From assembly GCA_003221005.1 (NCBI GenBank), contig QHTZ01000043.1:1-10551 (forward strand): a stretch of DNA of 10,551 nucleotides, in the 5' to 3' direction. Source of the stretch: Gemmatimonadota bacterium (GTDB lineage Bacteria; Gemmatimonadota; Gemmatimonadetes; Gemmatimonadales; GWC2-71-9). Positions 3 to 8,006 of the stretch are shown piece after piece. Under the pieces are notes generated by a model. The model was given only the letters and a program-made list of their open reading frames with translations. It was not told the origin of the DNA and did not search any database. The stretch's first letter is position 1. Every line of letters begins with the position of its first letter. Made by a program: the position numbers and the translations under genes.

Positions 3-2444
3 TTCGGGCTTGCGATTTTGCTCCAGACGGCCCTGACCCACCCCGCAATCGGACAGGCGATCCCCAAACCCGAGTACGTGACCTATCTGCCGCGGGAAAT
101 CGTCCTCCCGGTGCAGGCGACGCCTGCGAATCGGCAATTCCATCTCTTCGGTGATTCCGAGGCGCCGGGCTACCGCGATGAGGCGCCGCGGGACGGCATC
201 GACGATGCCCGCGAGCGGTGGCTCCGCTCGCTGGCGGTCAGGTTTGCACCCTGGATGGTGCGGAACTCGGTCGATTTCCCGATGGACTTCCGGCGGTTCG
301 TGGAGGGCGGTGATGCGTCCACGCTCTTCATCGATGCATTCGACCTGTCCCAGGCGCGCCCCAGGCTGCTCGGCACGGAGACCATCGATTTCGACCAGCT
401 CGGGGGGATAGCCTGCCGCGGCACCGGCGCCCCGGGAACCATGGGAGACACGACCCCTGACTGCCGACTGCTGCGGCTCATCGACCGGTTCGCGCCTGAG
501 CCGCCTCGGGCGGCGAGCCCGCCTCGGCCGGATCTCGACCTTCGCTACGTCATGTACTTCGATTTTCCCGGACAGGACCCGGCGTCGTGGAACCGGGAGT
601 TCGAGGGGAGCGTACGCGGCTCGATCGCTCGCAAGTACCTCGGCTTTGCAAAGTCGTTCGTGCACCCCTTCGTAAGTGAGGTGCGCGGCACGGGCTTCGA
701 GCTGCCGCGTTACGAGCTCGTCCTCCAGTACTGGTTTTTCTACCCCTACAACGATGCCGGTAACGTCCACGAGGGAGACTGGGAGCACCTGAACGTGGTG
801 GTCACTCCGCGCGGGCAAGGCACGGAGCCGTTGGCCGCGGCCGTGATGTCACGGGTACTCGAAGCGCCGGCCGCACCCGAGGAGCTGATCATTCGCCGGG
901 TGGAGTACTACTTCCACCACTGGGTGTTCAGCTCTGACTACATGACGCCCGACGTCTATGCCCCTCCCGCGGAGTGGGAGCGACAGATGAAGGGGCTGCG
1001 GCAGGAGCGGGTGGGAGAGCGCGAGGTGTGGCGGCAGATTCGGCGCCAGGCGTACCTCGACGAGGCGGAGACGAAGCTCAATTTGCACCCGATCGTGTTC
1101 ATCGGTGGGGACAACCGCGGGTTGCAGCAGCTCATCGCCAGTCCCAGCCGGCTCGGCCGCGCGAGTCACGGGTCCTACCCGTTCCCCGGCCTGTACAAGG
1201 ACGTGGGGCCACAGAATACCGGCGAGCTGGTGAGCACCCGCTGGGACATCTTCCGCGCGCCCCCCGAGTCCACTTCGTCTGAGGCGGACAAGGTCGTCCG
1301 CCTCGACAATCCGGAGCGGCTCGAGATCATCCCCGACTGGGAGCTGGTGCTGCAGCTCGTGCGGACGGATCCAAAGGCGCGCCGGGACTGGGCGTGGCTT
1401 GTGCTGCCGATCCGCTTCGGGTACCCGGCGACCCGATCCCCCTTCGCCGGAATCGTGCGCTACGCCGAGACCGGAAATACCTCGATCCTCGCACCCCCGT
1501 TCAACGGCGGGTGGAACCGCGCCGGGGCGGCGGCGGGTTTCGAGCGCTATCGCCCGCACCGCCTGGCCTCGTTTTTTCCGGCCAGCCAGCAGGACAACTA
1601 CTGGACGGGATGGGGATTCTTCAACCTTACGCTGCCCACGCTCGTGACCCTGCCGCCGTTCGACCTCGCTTTCCGGCTGGTCACCGCCCCGATCCGCGCC
1701 AGCAACCGCCACGCCCACCCGGCGTTCTTCGGCTCCGAAGAGGTTCCATTCCGGTTTATCGGCGTGCCTATCGGGGTCTCCTCAGTCACGGTGCCGAAGG
1801 CGTTCCTGAATCTCCTCGGATTTCCGGAGACCGCCGTGCCGTTTCTGACACAAGTGGCGGCGCTCGCGGCGTCCGACACGTTCTCAGTGAACGTGTCGCC
1901 CCCCGACGTGGACCGCGTGTCGCCCCCTTACTATGGGATCAGCCTCTTTCTCGGTCGCCGGTTCGTGAGCGAGAACACATTGCGGCATTCGCACGGCGCG
2001 CTGCGCGCGGACGTAGCCGTGAGCACGGTCCCCGGGCGCCTTCCCCTCAGCGCCAACCTCGAGATGTGGGAATACACCGGCAGCCTCCGCTACAACATCG
2101 CGCTGGGCGGCCTGCAGCCGTTCGTGAAGGCCGGATACGGGCGCAGCTGGTATCGCGTGACCGACGCGAAATTCAACGGGCAGCTTCTGGGAGACGGCAG
2201 CTCGCGCTGGGTGGGCCGGGCCGCCCTGTTCAACAATCTGCTACCGAACACCTGGCACGTGGGCGCTGGACTCGAGTTCATTCCCGTGCGGGGCGTGGGC
2301 GGGCTCGATTGGGGGTTTCGCGGCGACGTCACAGTGTACAGCCACAACCTCGGACTGGAAAACAAAGAGGGGTCGTTCGTCGTGGCGCAGGATGCGCACG
2401 TGACTCGGATCCACCTCGGCCTCGGGACGACGCTGAGCTTCTAG
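3..2444 (+). CDS. Secreted/outer-membrane protein: Vps62/NPP1-like N-terminal domain plus C-terminal outer-membrane beta-barrel (5' end probably outside the window)
   Basis: The frame is open upstream of the TTG at 18 (FGLAILLQTALTHPAIG-Q reads as the end of a signal peptide). Motifs QYWFFYPYN..HEGDWEH and RASHGSYP resemble Vps62/NPP1-type domains. The C-terminus has amphipathic strands (LQPFVKAGYG, WHVGAGLEF, RIHLGLGTTLSF) ending in Phe. Confidence 0.75.
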   Translation, partial: FGLAILLQTALTHPAIGQAIPKPEYVTYLPREIVLPVQATPANRQFHLFGDSEAPGYRDEAPRDGIDDARERWLRSLAVRFAPWMVRNSVDFPMDFRRFVEGGDASTLFIDAFDLSQARPRLLGTETIDFDQLGGIACRGTGAPGTMGDTTPDCRLLRLIDRFAPEPPRAASPPRPDLDLRYVMYFDFPGQDPASWNREFEGSVRGSIARKYLGFAKSFVHPFVSEVRGTGFELPRYELVLQYWFFYPYNDAGNVHEGDWEHLNVVVTPRGQGTEPLAAAVMSRVLEAPAAPEELIIRRVEYYFHHWVFSSDYMTPDVYAPPAEWERQMKGLRQERVGEREVWRQIRRQAYLDEAETKLNLHPIVFIGGDNRGLQQLIASPSRLGRASHGSYPFPGLYKDVGPQNTGELVSTRWDIFRAPPESTSSEADKVVRLDNPERLEIIPDWELVLQLVRTDPKARRDWAWLVLPIRFGYPATRSPFAGIVRYAETGNTSILAPPFNGGWNRAGAAAGFERYRPHRLASFFPASQQDNYWTGWGFFNLTLPTLVTLPPFDLAFRLVTAPIRASNRHAHPAFFGSEEVPFRFIGVPIGVSSVTVPKAFLNLLGFPETAVPFLTQVAALAASDTFSVNVSPPDVDRVSPPYYGISLFLGRRFVSENTLRHSHGALRADVAVSTVPGRLPLSANLEMWEYTGSLRYNIALGGLQPFVKAGYGRSWYRVTDAKFNGQLLGDGSSRWVGRAALFNNLLPNTWHVGAGLEFIPVRGVGGLDWGFRGDVTVYSHNLGLENKEGSFVVAQDAHVTRIHLGLGTTLSF

Positions 2445-2469
2445 GGGGATAGCGCCAAGACCTCGTCGG

Positions 2470-2475
2470 TATATT
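2470..2475 (+). promoter_or_regulatory. Putative -10 box (TATATT) for the DUF72 pair
   Basis: AT-rich TATATT hexamer in the 41-nt intergenic gap, 10 nt before the ATG at 2486. No clear -35 or Shine-Dalgarno sequence. Confidence 0.4.
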
Positions 2476-2485
2476 TCGACTGCTC

Positions 2486-3454
2486 ATGTCCGGCCGCAGT
2501 CAACCAGGTCTCTTCGACGACGTCGCCGCGCTGCCGCCACCGTCCTCCGATTTGGTGGCGCTCGGCAGTCGCGTCCCGTCCAACATCAAGTTCGGCACGT
2601 CCACTTGGACCTATGACGGCTGGACCGGCGAGGTCTACCGTCGTGACTACCGCGGGGCCCAACCAGCCAACCGGCTCGAAGAGTACGCCCGCTACCCGCT
2701 GTTTCGCACCGTCGGCATCGACAGCGCGTTCTACGATCCACCCTCGGAGGAAGTACTCGCCGCGTACGCGAGATCGCTGCCTGCCGAGTTTCCCTGCGTC
2801 AGCAAGGTGTGGGATCGCATCACCGCCCGGCGCTTGAACCAGGACGGGCGCTGGGGCAATCTCGCGGGACAACGCAACCCCGACTTCCTGAACGCCGACC
2901 TCTTCAAGGAGGCGGTGCTGGGTCCCTACGCTCGCGCGTTCCGCGATCACGCGGCGTGTTTCGTGTTCGAGTTCCAGTCAATGCGGGGGAAGGACCTGCC
3001 CGCCCCCGGCGCTTGGGCCGAGGAGTTGGACAGGTTTCTCGGCCAGCTGCCGCGCGACTTCCGGTACGCCGTCGAGCTGCGCAACCCCGAGCTGCTCGAT
3101 CCGCTGCACGGTGCGGTGCTCGGGCGTCACGGCGTGGCGCACGTGTTCAATTCCTGGACCGAGATGCCGCCGATCGGCGCGCAGCTCGAGCTGCCGTGGG
3201 TGTTCCCGGCCAATTTCACGGTGGCCGGCGCCCTGCTGCGGCCCGGGCGCGCCTACGCGGACGCGGTGAAGCTGTTCGAGCCGTATGACCGGATCCGCGA
3301 GCCGCTCCCGGAGCTGCGGCAGGACCTGGTGCGGCTGATCGTCGAGGCGACGAGCCGCCATCTCGAGGCGCTGGTCCTCGTCAACAACCGGGCCGAGGGA
3401 AACGCGCCTGGCACGATCCGCGCGCTGGCCACGGCGCTCGCGGCCGGCCGGTAG
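2486..3454 (+). CDS. DUF72 (YecE-family) TIM-barrel protein, paralog 1
   Basis: Family motifs FGTSTWTYDGW, LEEYA, TVGIDSAFY, YAVELRN, VNNRAEGNA; 322 aa. Confidence 0.9.
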   Translation: MSGRSQPGLFDDVAALPPPSSDLVALGSRVPSNIKFGTSTWTYDGWTGEVYRRDYRGAQPANRLEEYARYPLFRTVGIDSAFYDPPSEEVLAAYARSLPAEFPCVSKVWDRITARRLNQDGRWGNLAGQRNPDFLNADLFKEAVLGPYARAFRDHAACFVFEFQSMRGKDLPAPGAWAEELDRFLGQLPRDFRYAVELRNPELLDPLHGAVLGRHGVAHVFNSWTEMPPIGAQLELPWVFPANFTVAGALLRPGRAYADAVKLFEPYDRIREPLPELRQDLVRLIVEATSRHLEALVLVNNRAEGNAPGTIRALATALAAGR

Positions 3455-3460
3455 CGGGAC

Positions 3461-4396
3461 ATGGCCGTTCAGCCGCCGCGACCGGAGCTCGCCGCGCTCG
3501 CCGCCGCGCTGCCGCCCAACATCAAGTTCGGCACGTCCACGTGGGCGTGCGACGGGTGGGCCGGCGACGTCTACCACCGTCACTACGCGGGCGCGCAGCC
3601 GCGGCGGCGCCTCGAGGAATACACGGGGTATCCGCTGTTCCGGACGGTCGGGATCAACAGCGGGTTCTACGATCGGCCGTCCGAAGACGTGCTCGCCTCG
3701 TATGCGCGCGTGCTGCCGCCGGGGTTCGCGTGCGTGATCAAGGTGTGGGACCGCATCACCGCGCGGCGCTTCATCCGCGACCCGCGCTGGGGGGACCTGG
3801 CTGGCAGGCAGAATCCGGACTTCCTGAGCGCGCCGCTGTTCAAGGACGCCGTGCTCGCGCCGTATGCGCGGGCGTTCCGCGGCCAGACGCCCTATTTCGT
3901 GTTTCAGTTCCAGGCGATGCGCGGACCCGACCTGCCGAGCGCCCAGCAGTGGGCCGAGTGGCTGGACGGCTTCTTCAGCAAGCTCCCGCAGGACTTTCGC
4001 TACGCGGTCGAGCTCCGCAACCGGCAGCTGCTCAGCGAGCTCCACGGGGAGGTGCTGCGGCGGCATCGAGTCGCCCACGTGTTCAACTCGTGGACCGAGA
4101 TGCCGCCGATCGGCGCGCAGCTCGATCTGCCCTGGACGTTCGCCGGCGGTTTTACCGTAGCCCGCGCCCTTATGAAGCCGGGCCGGAAGTACGGGGACGC
4201 GGTCCGCGCGTTCGAGCCCTACGATCGGGTCCGCGAAGTGCTTCCCGAGCTGCGGGCGGACCTGCTACGGCTCATGTCGGAAGCCGTGGGACGAGGCGCC
4301 GAGGCCTTGATTCACGTCAACAACCGTGCCGAGGGCAACGCGCCGGGCACGATCCGCGCCGTGGTCGAGGCGTGGGTGCAGGCTCGCGGCGGCTAG
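3461..4396 (+). CDS. DUF72 (YecE-family) protein, paralog 2
   Basis: Same motifs (FGTSTWACDGW, TVGINSGFY, YAVELRN, VNNRAEGNA). Colinear with paralog 1 at a 936-nt offset and starts 6 nt after its stop. Confidence 0.9.
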   Translation: MAVQPPRPELAALAAALPPNIKFGTSTWACDGWAGDVYHRHYAGAQPRRRLEEYTGYPLFRTVGINSGFYDRPSEDVLASYARVLPPGFACVIKVWDRITARRFIRDPRWGDLAGRQNPDFLSAPLFKDAVLAPYARAFRGQTPYFVFQFQAMRGPDLPSAQQWAEWLDGFFSKLPQDFRYAVELRNRQLLSELHGEVLRRHRVAHVFNSWTEMPPIGAQLDLPWTFAGGFTVARALMKPGRKYGDAVRAFEPYDRVREVLPELRADLLRLMSEAVGRGAEALIHVNNRAEGNAPGTIRAVVEAWVQARGG

Positions 4397-5499
4397 AGCG
4401 CCAGCTCGGCCTGCGACGCGGGCCGCGTCGCGCGATAGCGGTCCCGCATCCCGTGGTTCACCGGGAACCCAAACTTCGCCTGGAGCCTGCGCACGCGGGC
4501 GTCGAGCGCCGCGGCGTACTCACGCGGCGCGCTCGAGTGCCGCGCGTACGCCCGGGAGTACCGCTCCACGAGGTGCGGGAACTCTGTCTGGAGCACCGGG
4601 AGAAAGCGGTCCCGCACGCCGGCGTACAGCCGCAGCGGCCCGGCGTGCACGAACCTGGCGCCGGCCTCCCGGGCCGCCTGGAAGAGCGCTTCCAGGTGGG
4701 AAACATCGTCCGTCAATCCCGGGAGGACCGGAGCCACGATCAATCCCGCGTTGATCCCGGCGGCGGTGAGCCGCCGCAACGCCCGCAGCCGCGTCGCGGG
4801 TAGCGGCGAGCGCACCTCCATCTTGCGGATGAGCGCGGCGTCCACCGTGATCAGGGAGACGTACACCTCGAGGTCCGAGCGGGCGGCGAGCCGCCGCAGC
4901 ACGTCGCAGTCTCGCGTCACGAGTGGGCTTTTCGTGATGATGCCGACCGAGAGGCCCTCGCAGGCGGCCAGCCGCTCGAGGATCGCCCGCGTCACGCGGA
5001 AGCGCCGCTCGGCGGGCTGATAGGGATCGGTGGCTGTCCCGATCACGAGCGGGGCGGGTTGGCGGTTCGCCGGGTGGGCCGATCGAAAGTACCGCCGCAG
5101 GTCGGCATCGAGCGCGCTGAGCACGTTCTCCTTGACGAAAATCCGGCGCTCGAAAGCCTCCCACCCTCCGGGACCGCGGAATTCGCGGAATTCCTCGTCG
5201 CTCAGGCGTCTCTGGTCGTGGGCCCGCTCCACCACGTAGCGGTGCGCGTAGCGCGCGTAGCAATACGTGCAGCCGAACTCGCACCCCACGTACGGATTGA
5301 TGGACCAGAAATCCATCCCGGTGGCTTGCGGCGAGTTCAGGATCGACTTGGGCGCGAGGGAAACGAACTTCGTGCCGCGGAGACGCTGATCGAGGACCGG
5401 CAAGGCGACGGAAGGACGGAAGGACGGAACGTCGATCACGGGCAACGTCAACTCCCGCTGCTCCTGGCCCAACGTTCCGTCCTTCCGTCGTTCCGTCAT
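4393..5499 (-). CDS. Radical SAM protein, SplB/Rv2578c-like putative DNA repair family
   Basis: INPYVGCEFGCTYCYA carries the CxxxCxxC motif; GTATDPYQPAE and ITKS are typical of this family. AGAGG Shine-Dalgarno-like sequence upstream of the ATG. Confidence 0.9.
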   Translation of the reverse strand: MTERRKDGTLGQEQRELTLPVIDVPSFRPSVALPVLDQRLRGTKFVSLAPKSILNSPQATGMDFWSINPYVGCEFGCTYCYARYAHRYVVERAHDQRRLSDEEFREFRGPGGWEAFERRIFVKENVLSALDADLRRYFRSAHPANRQPAPLVIGTATDPYQPAERRFRVTRAILERLAACEGLSVGIITKSPLVTRDCDVLRRLAARSDLEVYVSLITVDAALIRKMEVRSPLPATRLRALRRLTAAGINAGLIVAPVLPGLTDDVSHLEALFQAAREAGARFVHAGPLRLYAGVRDRFLPVLQTEFPHLVERYSRAYARHSSAPREYAAALDARVRRLQAKFGFPVNHGMRDRYRATRPASQAELAL

Positions 5500-5509
5500 T
5501 CCGTCGCCT
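5403..5509. repeat. Inverted repeat built from GACGGAAN octamers (3 copies versus 4) spanning the radical SAM RBS, start codon and N-terminus
   Basis: 5403-5432 aggcgacggaaggacggaaggacggaacgt is complementary to 5472-5509 acgttccgtccttccgtcgttccgtcattccgtcgcct; the inner 18 bp pair perfectly. Confidence 0.9.
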
Positions 5510-5511
5510 CT

Positions 5512-5658
5512 CTAGCCGCACCTCGCCCACCCGCACTGCGGACACACGAGGCAACCCGCTTGACGCACGAGATGCGCCCCGCAGTCGGGGCAACCGGGCC
5601 GTGGGGACGGGGGACGAGGGAAGGGGGACGGGCGCGGCTGCGGCTCGTGCAAGGGCAT
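5512..5658 (-). CDS. 48-aa cysteine-rich zinc-ribbon microprotein (not in the ORF track), resembling the C-terminal Cys cluster of class II ribonucleotide reductase NrdJ
   Basis: Manual translation: MPLHEPQPRPSPFPRPPSPRPGCPDCGAHLVRQAGCLVCPQCGWARCG*. It has CPxCG and CPxCG knuckles plus two extra Cys. It lies between the predicted promoter and the radical SAM gene, stopping 12 nt before its ATG. Confidence 0.8.
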   Translation of the reverse strand: MPLHEPQPRPSPFPRPPSPRPGCPDCGAHLVRQAGCLVCPQCGWARCG

Positions 5659-5663
5659 TGGCG

Positions 5664-5711
5664 TTCGGGAAATAGTGCACCCGAATATATCCCGAAGCCC
5701 ACTATCGGCAA
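5664..5711 (-). promoter_or_regulatory. Sigma70-type promoter (TTGCCG-N16-TATATT) overlapped by a TTCGGG-N5-TTCGGG direct repeat plus an inverted third copy; candidate repressor (SOS-type) operator
   Basis: On the minus strand, -35 is at 5711-5706 and -10 at 5689-5684. On the plus strand, CCCGAA occurs at 5680-5685 and 5691-5696 and TTCGGG at 5664-5669. Confidence 0.6.
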
Positions 5712-5737
5712 GGGTTGCTGCCGGTTAGTGTAACCCG

Positions 5738-6613
5738 ATGCTGAACAATCGGATAGCCTTCCAGGGCGAGCCCGGCGCCTATAGCGAGGAGGCGCTCTTC
5801 CTGCTGCACCCCGACGCCGCATCGCTCCCCTGTCGCGAGTTCCGCGACGTCGCCGCCGCGGTGCTCGAGTCCCGCGCGCGCTACGGACTGCTGCCGATCG
5901 AGAACTCACTCGTGGGGTCGATCGCGACCAACTTCGATCTGATCGCCGACTCGGGGCTCGCGATCGTGGGGGAGGTCGTGAGCCCCGTGCATCACTGCCT
6001 GCTCGCCGTGCGTGGCGCGGCCCGCGACACGCTGCGGCGCGTGCTCTCCCATCCCGTCGCGCTGGCGCAGTGCGAGCGCTTCCTCTCCGGGTTGGCGGAC
6101 GTGGAGGTCGTGGCGTTCTACGATACGGCGGGTGCGGCGGCGGAGGTCGCGCGCCGCAACGAGCGCACGGTGGGCGCCGTCGCCGGCGCGCTCGCCGCGC
6201 GCCGCTACGGCCTCGACGTCCTGGTCGAGCGGATCGAGGACGAGCCACACAACCAGACGCGGTTCCTGCTGGTGGGCCGGGAGCCGGCGCCTCCAGCGCC
6301 TGAAGCCCCGGCGAAGACAACCCTACGCCTGCGGCTGCCGCACCGGCCGGGTACGCTGGCGCACGCGCTCGCGCCGTTCGCCGAGAAGGGCCTGAACCTC
6401 ACCAAGCTCGAAAGCCGCCCCGACCGGGCAACGCCGTGGCAGTATCTCTTCTATCTCGATGTGGAGGGGCGGATCGCGGACCCTGCGATGCAAGCGGTGC
6501 TCGCTGCGTTGCGGTCGCAGGGAGCGGAGATCAAGCTCCTGGGTGACTACCCGAAGTTTGCGCCCCCCCCGCCCCCCCCGCCCCCCCCGCCCCCGTCACC
6601 GCCCGCCAGATGA
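5738..6613 (+). CDS. pheA: Prephenate dehydratase with C-terminal ACT domain
   Basis: IAFQGEPGAYSE, PIENSLVGS, SHPVALAQC, NQTRF, PGTL, NLTKLESRP, YLFYLD, LLGDYP. Monofunctional (no chorismate mutase domain). Confidence 0.95.
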   Translation: MLNNRIAFQGEPGAYSEEALFLLHPDAASLPCREFRDVAAAVLESRARYGLLPIENSLVGSIATNFDLIADSGLAIVGEVVSPVHHCLLAVRGAARDTLRRVLSHPVALAQCERFLSGLADVEVVAFYDTAGAAAEVARRNERTVGAVAGALAARRYGLDVLVERIEDEPHNQTRFLLVGREPAPPAPEAPAKTTLRLRLPHRPGTLAHALAPFAEKGLNLTKLESRPDRATPWQYLFYLDVEGRIADPAMQAVLAALRSQGAEIKLLGDYPKFAPPPPPPPPPPPSPPAR

Positions 6614-8006
6614 AATAGACCGGCACACCGAGGAGCACGCACAGCAGGCCGAGCCCGCTGTAGGTGGTCTTCTCGACCAGCAGGGCGAGCGCGATCAGAC
6701 CGTTGAGAGCGAGATAGGCCGCCGGGAGCCAGGGGTATCCGGGCACCCGCACCGGGCGCGGCGCGCCCGGTCGCTTGAGCCGCAGCACGAACAGCCCGAC
6801 GGCCGTGAGCATGTAGAACAGCAGCGCCGCGAAGATCACGAACTCGAGCAGCTGGCTGTACGTCCCGGAGAGGCACAGCATGCTGGTCCACACCGCCTGG
6901 ACGACGAGCGCGACGGCGGGCGTCCGATACCGCGGGTGCAGCGCGCCCGCCGACCGGAAGAACAGATCGTCGCGCGACATCGCGTAGTAGACACGCGCTC
7001 CCGACAGGATCAGCCCGTTGTTGCAGCCAAACGTCGAGATCATGATCGCGACCGCCATGACGTAGAGTCCGGCGTTGCCCAGGATCACCTGCAGCGCTGC
7101 GGTGGCGACCCGGTCCTGAGGCGCGCTCGCGATGTCGCGCGCCGGGAGCACATGCAGGTAGGCGACGTTTGCGAGCAGATAGAGCACGGTGACGGTGAGG
7201 ACGCCGGCCGCCATCGCGAACGGGAGGTCCCGGGTCGGCTCTTCGAGCTCACCCGCCGCGAAGCCCACATTGTTCCACGCGTCCATCGAGAACAGGGAGC
7301 CGACCATGGCGGCCCCGAGCACCGGCAAGAGGGCCGCGGTGAGCCCGCCCGCGGGCCAGAAGTCGGGGCCGAAGTTCGCGGCGATTGCCGCGGCGTTGCG
7401 GCCGACCGTGAGCCCCAGCAGGATGAGGGCGGCGAGCGCCGCCGTCTTGATCGCGGTGAGCGTCGTCTGGATAAAGGCGGCGGTCTTCACCCCCCGGACG
7501 TTGACCCACGTGAGCACCACCACAGAGGCGATCGCGAGCAGCCGCTGGGGCGACAGGCCGACCGTGATCGGGCCGATCGGCTGGGGAAACGCGATTGTGC
7601 CGCCGAGGAAGACGTCCGGGGCGAGAGCAGGGAAGAGCACCGCGGTGAACCGCGCGAACGCCACCGCCACCGCGGCGATGGTGCCCGTCTGGATGACGAC
7701 GAACAGCGTCCAGCCGTACAGGTACCCGAACAGGGGCGAGATCCCCTCCCGCAGGTACACGTACTGACCGCCCGCCCGCGGGAACATCGCCGCGAGCTCG
7801 CCGTAGCTGAGCGCGCCCATCAACGTCACCAGCCCCGACAGCCCCCAGACGAGCAGCAGCAGCCCGGGTGCGTGCACGTCGCGGAGGATCTGGGCCGAGA
7901 CGATGAAAATCCCCGACCCGATCATCGAGCCGACCACGAGGGCGGTGGCGTCGAGCCGGGAGATCGCCCGGACGAATTCCGTCTGAGGCTGTGTCGTGCT
8001 CGCCAT
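6531..8006 (-). CDS. APC-superfamily amino acid permease (LAT/SteT-like)
   Basis: VGSMIGSGIF, YGELAAMFPRAGGQYVYL, AGELEEPTRDLP, SGARVYYAMSRD; about 12 hydrophobic segments. Confidence 0.93.
   Translation of the reverse strand: MASTTQPQTEFVRAISRLDATALVVGSMIGSGIFIVSAQILRDVHAPGLLLLVWGLSGLVTLMGALSYGELAAMFPRAGGQYVYLREGISPLFGYLYGWTLFVVIQTGTIAAVAVAFARFTAVLFPALAPDVFLGGTIAFPQPIGPITVGLSPQRLLAIASVVVLTWVNVRGVKTAAFIQTTLTAIKTAALAALILLGLTVGRNAAAIAANFGPDFWPAGGLTAALLPVLGAAMVGSLFSMDAWNNVGFAAGELEEPTRDLPFAMAAGVLTVTVLYLLANVAYLHVLPARDIASAPQDRVATAALQVILGNAGLYVMAVAIMISTFGCNNGLILSGARVYYAMSRDDLFFRSAGALHPRYRTPAVALVVQAVWTSMLCLSGTYSQLLEFVIFAALLFYMLTAVGLFVLRLKRPGAPRPVRVPGYPWLPAAYLALNGLIALALLVEKTTYSGLGLLCVLLGVPVYFIWRAVTGAGGAGGAGGAQTSGSHPGA
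6562..6595. repeat. (GC8)3-GC5 homopolymer tract; potential G-quadruplex on the minus strand
   Basis: gcccccccc three times then gcccccg, inside the pheA/permease 3' overlap. Confidence 0.85.

Follow-up and report, generated by a model that had tools for sequence, protein, structure and literature searches.

A predicted LexA-controlled operon of a six-cysteine microprotein and an SplB-like radical SAM enzyme in Gemmatimonadales

We describe here a gene pair in a 10,551-nt stretch of Gemmatimonadota DNA (the window, which is the entire contig C99 of a 2.79-Mb genome in 141 contigs with an estimated completeness of 93.9%), in which a 48-residue microprotein with six cysteines is encoded just upstream of an SplB-like radical S-adenosylmethionine (SAM) enzyme. 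We read positions 4393-5711 as a LexA-repressed, and because of that damage-inducible, two-gene operon, the microprotein first and the enzyme second, and we put the probability of this reading, mechanism included, at roughly three in four. The in silico evidence establishes which operator this is and that the gene pair is conserved; it also shows that the microprotein is homologous to the tail of a ribonucleotide reductase (RNR) and that the enzyme has a predicted fold like that of spore photoproduct lyase (SPL). The closest public records to the window are metagenome-assembled genomes of soil Gemmatimonadales. An earlier reading of this DNA, the original prediction, had described four open reading frames (ORFs), a CTAG shared by two stop codons and a promoter with a repeat operator, all of which are present; it had joined the four proteins, this pair and two DUF72 proteins encoded on the other strand, into a single pathway for processing DNA lesions. 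The elements of the operon are as follows.

5684-5711, minus strand: sigma-70-like promoter TTGCCG-16-TATATT, the sole such site in 2300-6000, where shuffled sequences lead one to expect 0.2
5678-5699, minus strand: LexA-type operator (predicted SOS box), 22-nt matrix window GGCTTCGGGATATATTCGGGTG, score 29.8
5696-5681, minus strand: core direct repeat of the operator, TTCGG-N6-TTCGG, sequence TTCGGGATATATTCGGG
5664-5669, minus strand: inverted half-site CCCGAA, 10 nt downstream of the direct repeat
5512-5658, minus strand: microprotein of 48 residues, with a variable, proline-rich N-terminus and a C-terminal six-cysteine module, CPDCGAHLVRQAGCLVCPQCGWARCG
4393-5499, minus strand: radical SAM enzyme of 368 residues, COG1533/SplB-like, matching PF04055 at 51.1 bits (cut-off 29.5) and starting 12 nt past the microprotein stop

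Results

A predicted LexA operator upstream of the gene pair

The promoter and the operator are intertwined, the -10 hexamer (5689-5684) sitting between the two TTCGG half-sites and overlapping the operator repeat. More distant relatives have a complete second box in inverted orientation (CCGAA-N6-CCGAA), of which the CCCGAA half-site is what remains in the window, and the full four-part arrangement, TTCGG-N6-TTCGG...CCGAA-N6-CCGAA, lies upstream of radical SAM homologues at, for example, L014, L017, L021, L022 and L023.

Two sets of loci underlie the counts given here and below. The public set holds 80 radical SAM loci, 65 from outside the Acidobacteriota and 15 from within them, and the relatives' set holds 30 loci including the window's own and one from the unpublished genome G020, whose loci (L008 and L187) enter counts only; two loci of the relatives' set come from the same genomes as loci of the public set. 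A position matrix trained on 30 sites upstream of radical SAM homologues in relatives finds, on both strands of the window's own genome, 21 sites scoring at least 12 and six scoring above 27, and because only six sites reach that level the operator repeat is more than a chance occurrence. Within the window it is the only site scoring at least 5.5, the next, at 1489, scoring 5.4. The six strongest sites include those directly upstream of recA (on contig C57, followed by recX and alaS), of lexA (on C124, where a second, tandem box scores 12.3), and of this operon.

The association with the two central SOS genes holds among relatives. Of the 28 relatives' loci in which recA could be placed (30 were fetched), 27 have a site scoring at least 10 upstream of it, and a site of at least 12 lies within 200 nt upstream of lexA in 29 of 30, the own genome included, with two or more such sites in 26 of 30 against a background of 0.0016 per window of that size. 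A LexA box is classically recognized by autoregulatory tandem sites at lexA and by a further site at recA. At the radical SAM genes themselves a box of at least 12 is found within about 500 nt upstream of the match at 60 of the 65 non-Acidobacteriota loci (of the five misses, one has no upstream sequence at all and another has 260 nt), and a TTCGC-N6-TTCGC variant, in one or two boxes, precedes the homologue at 14 of the 15 Acidobacteriota loci. The GTTC-N7-GTTC LexA boxes of Alphaproteobacteria and Acidobacteria resemble this direct repeat at its 11-nt spacing. TTCGG-N6-TTCGG is thus very probably the LexA operator of this order, and the operon, which shares the motif with lexA and recA, falls within the LexA (SOS) regulon as predicted from sequence. 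The damage-inducible control that the original prediction had proposed is to that extent borne out in silico.

It could be argued that the motif is instead a promoter recognized by an alternative sigma factor, or is bound by some other regulator, and that the operon lies outside SOS control. The LexA assignment is made from sequence, and a -10-like hexamer does lie inside many of the copies, but tandem copies precede lexA, which is the mark of autoregulation, copies precede recA, and the motif also precedes imuB-dnaE2 and has its TTCGC counterpart upstream of the Acidobacteriota homologues. We consider this alternative very improbable. A literature search judged by titles and covering few subscription journals found no description of a Gemmatimonadales LexA operator, and the present analysis yields a probable one along with a small predicted regulon of recA, lexA, the microprotein-radical SAM pair and imuB-dnaE2.

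The remaining three boxes above 27 in the own genome score 28.7-32.4 and lie at C133:7336 (plus strand), C11:19254 (plus strand) and C38:1051 (minus strand). They are found upstream of a gene for an RND-type transporter, between genes for a PAS sensor kinase and a holB-like protein, and upstream of a gene for a repeat-containing, outer-membrane-like protein. These neighbouring genes are possible non-canonical members of the SOS regulon.

The microprotein is related to the C-terminal tail of class II ribonucleotide reductase

On comparative sequence evidence the 48-residue ORF is a real, conserved gene. Using tblastn and reading of frames, we find it at 25 of the 30 relatives' loci, which is 25 of the 29 with upstream sequence (L024 has none), and 23 of 27 once the own locus and that of G020 are excluded as well. 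It is always in a frame other than that of the enzyme, with gaps between the two of -10 to about +330 nt. In the public set it is present at 37 of the 65 non-Acidobacteriota loci and at none of the 15 from Acidobacteriota, where 14 translated upstream regions contain no Cys-rich ORF. All 59 distinct microprotein sequences have the six cysteines at fixed spacing and end one residue past the last of them, following the pattern C-P-x-C-x9-C-x2-C-x2-C-G-x3-C-x-stop behind a variable N-terminus; the invariant residues are C23, P24, C26, C36, C39, C42, G43 and C47. At L020 (genome G026) the pair of boxes is intact, and the microprotein ORF is replaced by a Cys-less ORF of 16 codons followed by GTCTGTGC-type repeats, probably through a recent loss, since genomes of the same genus keep the ORF.

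Among NCBIfam models the microprotein aligns to positions 732-759 of the 759 in NF006417 (class II RNR) with an E-value of 9.8e-8, and the only other occurrence of the pattern in the genome is at the C-terminus of its own NrdJ (831 residues, NF006417 at 1137.5 bits), which is 50% identical to the microprotein over 26 residues with equal spacing. A word-index search for homologues with the 48-residue protein, among candidates of 26-84 residues, gave no match, a blank that reflects the limited sensitivity of that method because a profile search of the full library of 1.84 billion representatives later returned 3072 proteins at E<=0.001. The top 150 of these are mostly proteins of 30-105 residues with the module at their very end. 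Among 28 longer matches that were scanned, 12 are RNR or TSCPD proteins carrying the module as a tail, seven are zinc-ribbon repeat or topoisomerase I proteins with partial matches, one each is a PafC-type helix-turn-helix (HTH) protein, a Nudix protein and an intein fragment, and six match no family. We conclude from these alignments that the microprotein is homologous to the Cys-rich tail through which class II RNR (NrdJ) transfers electrons, but stands free: it has the six-cysteine spacing at its extreme C-terminus and, as a separate ORF, is not fused to a class II RNR catalytic barrel. We note that the same six-cysteine tail also terminates the PafC-type HTH protein P0053 (159 residues) and the stand-alone TSCPD-domain proteins P0073, P0121 and P0141 (190-230 residues), and the module therefore seems portable.

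In the NrdJd protein of S. nassauensis all six cysteines of the tail are reported to be needed for the delivery of electrons to the active site, and the homology model described in the same report assigns four of them to a zinc ion and two to a terminal redox pair (PMC5704485). By position the equivalents here would be C23, C26, C39 and C42 for zinc, and C36 and C47 for the redox pair. The suggestion that the microprotein is a redox or metal partner, which the original prediction had made in general terms, so acquires a concrete basis in its homology to this six-cysteine zinc and electron-transfer tail.

A rival view is that the microprotein is no redox shuttle but a structural or nucleic-acid-binding zinc ribbon, acting as a clamp on the lesion or the DNA, or a donor of ligands for an extra metal or Fe-S site. 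Consistent with this are weak Pfam matches, short of the cut-offs at E 0.007-0.009, to DNA ligase and topoisomerase I zinc ribbons, the presence of topoisomerase I and multi-zinc-ribbon proteins among the profile matches, and the finding that enzymes lacking the microprotein have up to three extra cysteines, a potential metal site in cis. However, the matches that extend over the full length, as far as the C-terminal end, are to class II RNR tails and take in the ending CGW(G/S)(R/K)CG, whereas those to zinc-ribbon repeats are partial; moreover all six cysteines are invariant and not just four, as in the NrdJ tail in which all six are reported to be required (PMC5704485). We consider the zinc-ribbon view rather unlikely.

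The radical SAM enzyme has a predicted fold like that of spore photoproduct lyase

The enzyme contains the cluster motif CEFGCTYC (C73-x3-C77-x2-C80), whose three cysteines are invariant in sets of 14 and of 56 sequences, and with this CxxxCxxC motif and a PF04055 score above the gathering cut-off it is a member of the radical SAM superfamily. Its scores against the curated families of the group, of which the first two are its best NCBIfam matches, are 206.7 bits in two stretches for the Rv2578c family (NF038135, cut-off 430), 197.6 bits for the PA0069 family (NF033668, cut-off 360) and 16 bits for spore photoproduct lyase (TIGR04070, cut-off 400), and because it lies below all three cut-offs we place it in a separate branch of the SplB-like group.

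For an AlphaFold model of the enzyme (pLDDT 88.5), the best Protein Data Bank (PDB) matches, at ranks one to six, are all entries of spore photoproduct lyase (E 1.4e-9 to 1.9e-8); the alignment to 4FHC has an E-value of 1.4e-9, template-modelling (TM) scores of 0.57 and 0.61, and 16% identity over about 319 columns, and the next radical SAM enzymes follow at E-values of about 1e-5. Going by the predicted model, the enzyme is SplB-like in fold, in agreement with the class to which it had originally been assigned.

The juxtaposition of a short Cys-rich peptide and a radical SAM enzyme also calls to mind peptides made by ribosomes and then post-translationally modified (RiPPs). The 'six cysteines in forty-five residues' peptides are a RiPP family with maturases of the sactipeptide/ranthipeptide type, and the microprotein, which has six cysteines, is encoded immediately before the radical SAM gene and combines a conserved C-terminus with a variable N-terminus, could be seen as a substrate of such a maturase. 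Neither protein, however, has a SPASM/twitch or auxiliary-cluster domain or a match to any RiPP family at E<=0.01 in Pfam or NCBIfam, the best fold match is SPL with the RiPP maturase SkfB at an E-value of only 9.3e-6 and a TM score of 0.43, the operon has a LexA operator and polymerase neighbours and is without a transporter or protease gene, and the homologue of the Cys module in RNR is a folded zinc module. A RiPP system is hardly credible here.

A further relationship between the two proteins is suggested by cysteines at positions 255, 287 and 340 of the enzyme, which are found in 35 of 46 enzymes without a microprotein and in one of 60 with it. Over the 106 rows of this count (L008, L024, L070 and L096 were left out), 59 have the microprotein and no such Cys, 35 have a Cys and no microprotein, 11 have neither, and one has both. 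On a FastTree tree the presence of the microprotein changes five times and that of the cysteines four times, and an independent-pairs test has neither power nor support, so that complementarity between enzyme and microprotein cysteines is a hint only. Prediction of a complex of the two proteins (alignments A3 and A2) gave a score of 0.00, which, without controls and with the fold of the partner uncertain, speaks neither for nor against binding.

Two observations concern the start of the radical SAM gene. At 5480-5506 three overlapping 11-nt direct repeats with 8-nt spacing (TCCTTCCGTCG) extend across the start codon (5499) and the spacer that precedes it, and many metagenome contigs of other organisms end or diverge around 5400-5509.

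The pair belongs to a predicted SOS neighbourhood with imuB-dnaE2

Comparison of the relatives' loci points to a conserved theme, in which a box, the microprotein gene and the radical SAM gene are followed by a variable space and then by a second box and imuB-dnaE2. The DnaE2 encoded after imuB in relatives scores 953.5 bits against NF004225 (cut-off 939). The radical SAM gene leads directly into imuB in G002 (with a 16-nt gap), L012, L014, L072 and L074. When loci with at least 2.5 kb of downstream sequence are counted, 12 of 23 with the microprotein have a co-directional Y-family gene no more than 3 kb from the radical SAM gene, as do four of 17 without it and none of 10 from Acidobacteriota. 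In the window's own genome, imuB-dnaE2 is at the end of contig C6 (22727-27146, minus strand), where imuB is cut at residue 121, and from its orientation we infer that this end may join the start of the window. The window's radical SAM unit is not itself a member of an imuB-dnaE2 cassette, the DUF72 genes lying there on the opposite strand.

These arrangements raise the question of whether the enzyme and the microprotein are accessory subunits of an ImuB-DnaE2 mutasome, for example in the place of ImuA, and the enzyme no independent repair enzyme. The co-directional order radical SAM-imuB-dnaE2, which is seen in L075, L082 and L107 in addition to the five named above, would fit, as would the occurrence of SplB-like genes in operons with ImuB-C described by Aravind et al. 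2013 (PMC3765255). Against this, the frequencies of a nearby Y-family gene given above are modest even where the microprotein is present, and in the window and its genus imuB has a LexA box of its own, with opposite-strand genes between the two units. A role as mutasome subunits is in our estimation decidedly unlikely.

The DUF72 pair

Convergent with the operon are two genes of the DUF72 family, with the following features.

2468-2481, plus strand: -10-like element GGTATATTTCGACT, just upstream of DUF72a and also present at L061, L063, L070 and L185
2486-3454, plus strand: DUF72a, 322 residues, TIM barrel; PF01904 at 89.6 bits (cut-off 25.3)
3461-4396, plus strand: DUF72b, 311 residues, a second copy 68% identical to DUF72a; PF01904 at 86.6 bits
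4393-4396, both strands: CTAG common to the convergent stop codons of DUF72b and the radical SAM gene

The scores above the gathering cut-off and, for DUF72a, the predicted TIM-barrel fold place both in DUF72. The model of DUF72a (pLDDT 88.9) superimposes on 1VPY, 1ZTV and 1VPQ with a Z-score of 21.4 and a root-mean-square deviation of 2.9-3.3 over 232-253 residues, and beyond these it resembles endonuclease IV (5ZHZ, Z 13.9) as closely as it does xylose isomerase (Z 14.2) and epimerases (Z 13.9). The UV damage endonuclease UVDE is not among the 50 Foldseek matches listed for it, and a sequence search of solved structures with DUF72a gave no match at E<=0.01. In a family search of 41 genomes, canonical DUF72 proteins (about 200 bits or more) occur in every one, the own genome's copy being on contig C65, whereas the window's copies belong to a divergent and longer subfamily (75-117 bits) found only in the window's own family; arrangements with two copies recur in G004 (L182) and at L061.

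DUF72a is not preceded by a LexA box: in 2396-2500 the operator score does not exceed -8.9. The sequence GTCGGTATATTTCGA at 2466-2480 was considered as a decayed LexA box and rejected, since relatives have the same element plus a true box. At 14 distinct relatives a strong box (28.8-32.1) does lie 39-119 nt upstream of DUF72, and a divergent IMS-family (ImuB-like) gene begins 3-22 nt from it, the -10 embedded in the box facing imuB. DUF72 is head-to-head with imuB in G015 (90% complete, with no radical SAM match) and in G016 (whose radical SAM unit is on a different contig), and in G022-G024 it lies 1-4 kb downstream of the microprotein gene, the radical SAM gene, the Y-family gene and dnaE2, on the same strand. 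The subfamily is elsewhere in G008, G011, G012, G013 and G018, and the copy of G010, on a 2.7-kb contig, cannot be judged. Of the 20 same-family genomes that carry the subfamily, 14 have DUF72 no more than 10 kb from the radical SAM gene, imuB-dnaE2 or both, in two arrangements: convergent between the two units, or co-directional as in G022-G024. In the public set it is within 6 kb of the radical SAM gene at 13 of 80 loci, 12 of which encode a radical SAM protein at least 62% identical to that of the window.

Where DUF72 and the radical SAM gene are neighbours, the distance between their stops varies from 0 to 2.9 kb, with different inserts in different relatives: HTH-like paralogues of about 140 residues, a lipoprotein-like gene of about 230 residues, or an M16-type peptidase gene. 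The CTAG overlap of the window is, given this variable gap and the unrelated genes inserted, a local accident. The paralogues of about 140 residues, one to three in number, share the motif ...VPTLPVPLLRDAVARE...SPNGLRNFL... and lie between the radical SAM gene and DUF72 at L061:7410-8661, L064:7102-7524 and L185:1596-2535. At L065, L066, L068, L069, L112 and L186 the same interval holds a conserved lipoprotein-like insert of 223-287 residues with the motif ...V(S/Q)WMEWPAEV.... At L002 / L183:4345-5225 (G001, of the same genus) the DUF72 gene beside the radical SAM gene is broken into three frames, and the nearest LexA box is 1.8 kb away.

By synteny DUF72 goes with imuB rather than with the radical SAM gene. 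A role for it in the damage response stays plausible because it lies in or beside the SOS neighbourhood in those 14 of 20 genomes, and DUF72 genes are reported to be enriched near damage-inducible polB2 operons (PMC11791011).

The flanks of these units complete the picture of the window. Upstream of the DUF72 pair an ORF of 808 residues or more (3-2444, plus strand), open at the contig start, abuts DUF72a and occupies the place of the relatives' LexA box and imuB. It matches no Pfam or NCBIfam family; its C-terminal part, which ends ...TLSF, resembles an outer-membrane beta-barrel, and tblastn finds no counterpart in any relative's locus. On the other side, pheA (prephenate dehydratase with an ACT domain; 5738-6613, plus strand) stands head-to-head with the operon, its start 39 nt from the LexA box, which shows position alone to be weak evidence. 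The C-terminus of the pheA product consists of 11 consecutive prolines, and the gene overlaps by 83 nt the 3' end of a convergent amino-acid permease gene (6531-8006, minus strand).

We can now return to the original prediction that the four proteins form one lesion pathway, with the enzyme attacking the damaged base, DUF72 acting as nuclease or lyase on the product, and the microprotein as redox or metal partner. The recurrence of DUF72 near the SOS units in two arrangements, the persistence of this proximity among relatives beyond that of the pheA neighbour on the other side, a barrel no less similar to endonuclease IV than to sugar isomerases, and the reported polB2 association (PMC11791011) could all be accommodated. 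However, DUF72a of the window has no LexA box, the box near DUF72 in relatives is closer to imuB and oriented towards it, and DUF72 stays with imuB in G015 and G016; 67 of the 80 public loci have no DUF72 within 6 kb, unrelated genes intervene in many relatives, and five or six same-family genomes have the subfamily elsewhere. We also note that pheA faces the operon's LexA box head-to-head just as DUF72 of relatives faces that of imuB, which makes position a poor guide. The stop overlap not being conserved, and separated DUF72 genes remaining with imuB-dnaE2, we do not retain the four-protein pathway and think it unlikely; of the proposed neighbourhood the pairing of microprotein and radical SAM enzyme is conserved, and the linkage of DUF72 to the radical SAM gene gives way to one that follows imuB.

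Assembly and transcript coverage

The junction at 2444-2486 is spanned, with 0 to 2 differences, by DNA contigs from three runs in three studies, one of which may be the source sample, and since these contigs cover the junction the assembly is sound at that point. An Rfam scan of the window gave no family at the gathering thresholds. One soil metatranscriptome run has a 255-nt contig inside DUF72a (2672-2926) and a short low-complexity piece at 5475-5509, matches that carry no information on expression or induction.

Discussion

The combination of a LexA-type operator, an RNR-tail-like microprotein and an enzyme with the predicted fold of spore photoproduct lyase suggests the following course of events. 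After DNA damage, RecA-stimulated cleavage of LexA would free the promoter, and both proteins would be made. The [4Fe-4S] cluster of the enzyme and SAM would then generate a 5'-deoxyadenosyl radical acting on a DNA lesion, as in spore photoproduct lyase. The microprotein would bind zinc through C23, C26, C39 and C42, leaving C36 and C47 at its flexible C-terminus to serve the enzyme as a trans-acting thiol donor, of an electron or a hydrogen atom. We infer induction by damage and a lesion substrate from the operator and the fold; the step that uses C36 and C47 is drawn by analogy with NrdJ and is offered tentatively, as an idea rather less likely to be right than wrong. The operon would form one arm of an SOS neighbourhood in which, in relatives, imuB-dnaE2 follows or lies a few kb away, and the DUF72 genes (2486-4396) would occupy the variable space that separates these two SOS units.

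Several observations weigh against this interpretation of the operon. The regulator has been assigned solely by the sharing of a motif with lexA and recA, and because many sites contain a -10-like TATATT, conservation of the motif may in part be that of a promoter and not of an operator, although the inverted copies with T-rich spacers and the tandem copies at lexA run counter to conservation of a promoter only. The enzyme scores below the curated cut-off for each of the Rv2578c, PA0069 and photoproduct-lyase families, and its sequence profile gave no match to solved structures at E<=0.01. The radical SAM homologues of 28 same-phylum loci and of all 15 Acidobacteriota loci are without a microprotein, and the complementarity of the cysteines traces to essentially one split in the tree. 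The enzymes that are associated with a microprotein have no invariant Cys beyond the three cluster ligands, so that an active-site disulfide of the kind found in RNR is not evident, which would leave the substrate or the radical site as the place where any donated thiol acts directly. Finally, apart from the short piece mentioned, the operon is not covered by RNA contigs in the one metatranscriptome run.

This notwithstanding, the LexA-repressed operon is our preferred reading. Among SOS genes that still lack a known reaction, those for SplB-like radical SAM proteins are some of the most widely conserved. Here a dedicated microprotein recognizable as the RNR tail suggests a testable chemistry, namely a thiol donor in trans, and the enzyme and the microprotein make a simple pair for reconstitution. 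If the proposal is true, it would be the first use of the RNR Cys-rich redox module outside RNRs, and would provide a handle on the orphan COG1533 SOS enzymes, such as Rv2578c and PA0069, whose chemistry has been unsolved for two decades. What DUF72 does may be approached through the position of the divergent subfamily beside imuB-dnaE2, taken with the association with polB2 that has been published. A broader synthesis, in which a copy of the RNR tail was recruited as thiol donor for an SOS radical SAM enzyme and DUF72 is a damage-response nuclease working with the ImuB-DnaE2 mutasome, is a rather unlikely extension.

It is useful to set the system beside those already known. LexA control of an SplB-like radical SAM gene is not new: a RecA-dependent LexA ChIP-seq (chromatin immunoprecipitation sequencing) peak is reported at Rv2578c/Rv2579 of M. 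tuberculosis (PMC3381160), PA0069 is given as one of 15 SOS genes of P. aeruginosa in a report citing Cirz 2006 (bioRxiv 10.1101/2022.03.14.484287), and splB/COG1533 is described as SOS-regulated in several phyla (PMC8565304). It is the microprotein partner that is new and informative. These genes (Rv2578c, PA0069, and splB of Bacteroidetes, Verrucomicrobia and others) belong to the same broad group as the enzyme described here and likewise stand behind a LexA operator, but the enzyme scores at about half the cut-offs of both named families, its operator has the sequence of this phylum, and it is preceded by a conserved microprotein, none being seen with the 15 Acidobacteriota homologues. Spore photoproduct lyase itself (SplB; 4FHC) is also a radical SAM enzyme and acts on DNA, although the present host is not known as a spore former.

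The microprotein differs from the Cys-rich domain (CRD) of NrdJ (Loderer et al. 2017, PMC5704485) in its context, and it shares the ending CGW(G/S)(R/K)CG with RNR tails. The proteins of the microprotein type are free-standing (43-105 residues) and encoded beside a radical SAM gene with no RNR fusion, and their spacing is nearly that of the CRD, C-x2-C-x9-C-x2-C-x2-C-x4-C as compared with x5 before the last Cys in the S. nassauensis protein as reported. In that paper the CRD, when expressed separately, is reported not to have restored RNR activity in trans.

The system resembles the imuA-imuB-dnaE2 cassette in that a LexA-controlled imuB-dnaE2 follows or adjoins the microprotein and radical SAM genes of relatives, whereas in the genome studied here the polymerase genes are off the window's contig, and two DUF72 genes and the 808-residue ORF are there instead. 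The polB2-associated DUF72 genes are similarly described as lying near genes for error-prone polymerases (PMC11791011). Compared with canonical DUF72, the pair in the window is divergent, longer and duplicated in tandem, and endonuclease IV, from the endonuclease IV/UVDE branch of the xylose-isomerase-like barrels, is no closer to DUF72a than the sugar isomerases are.

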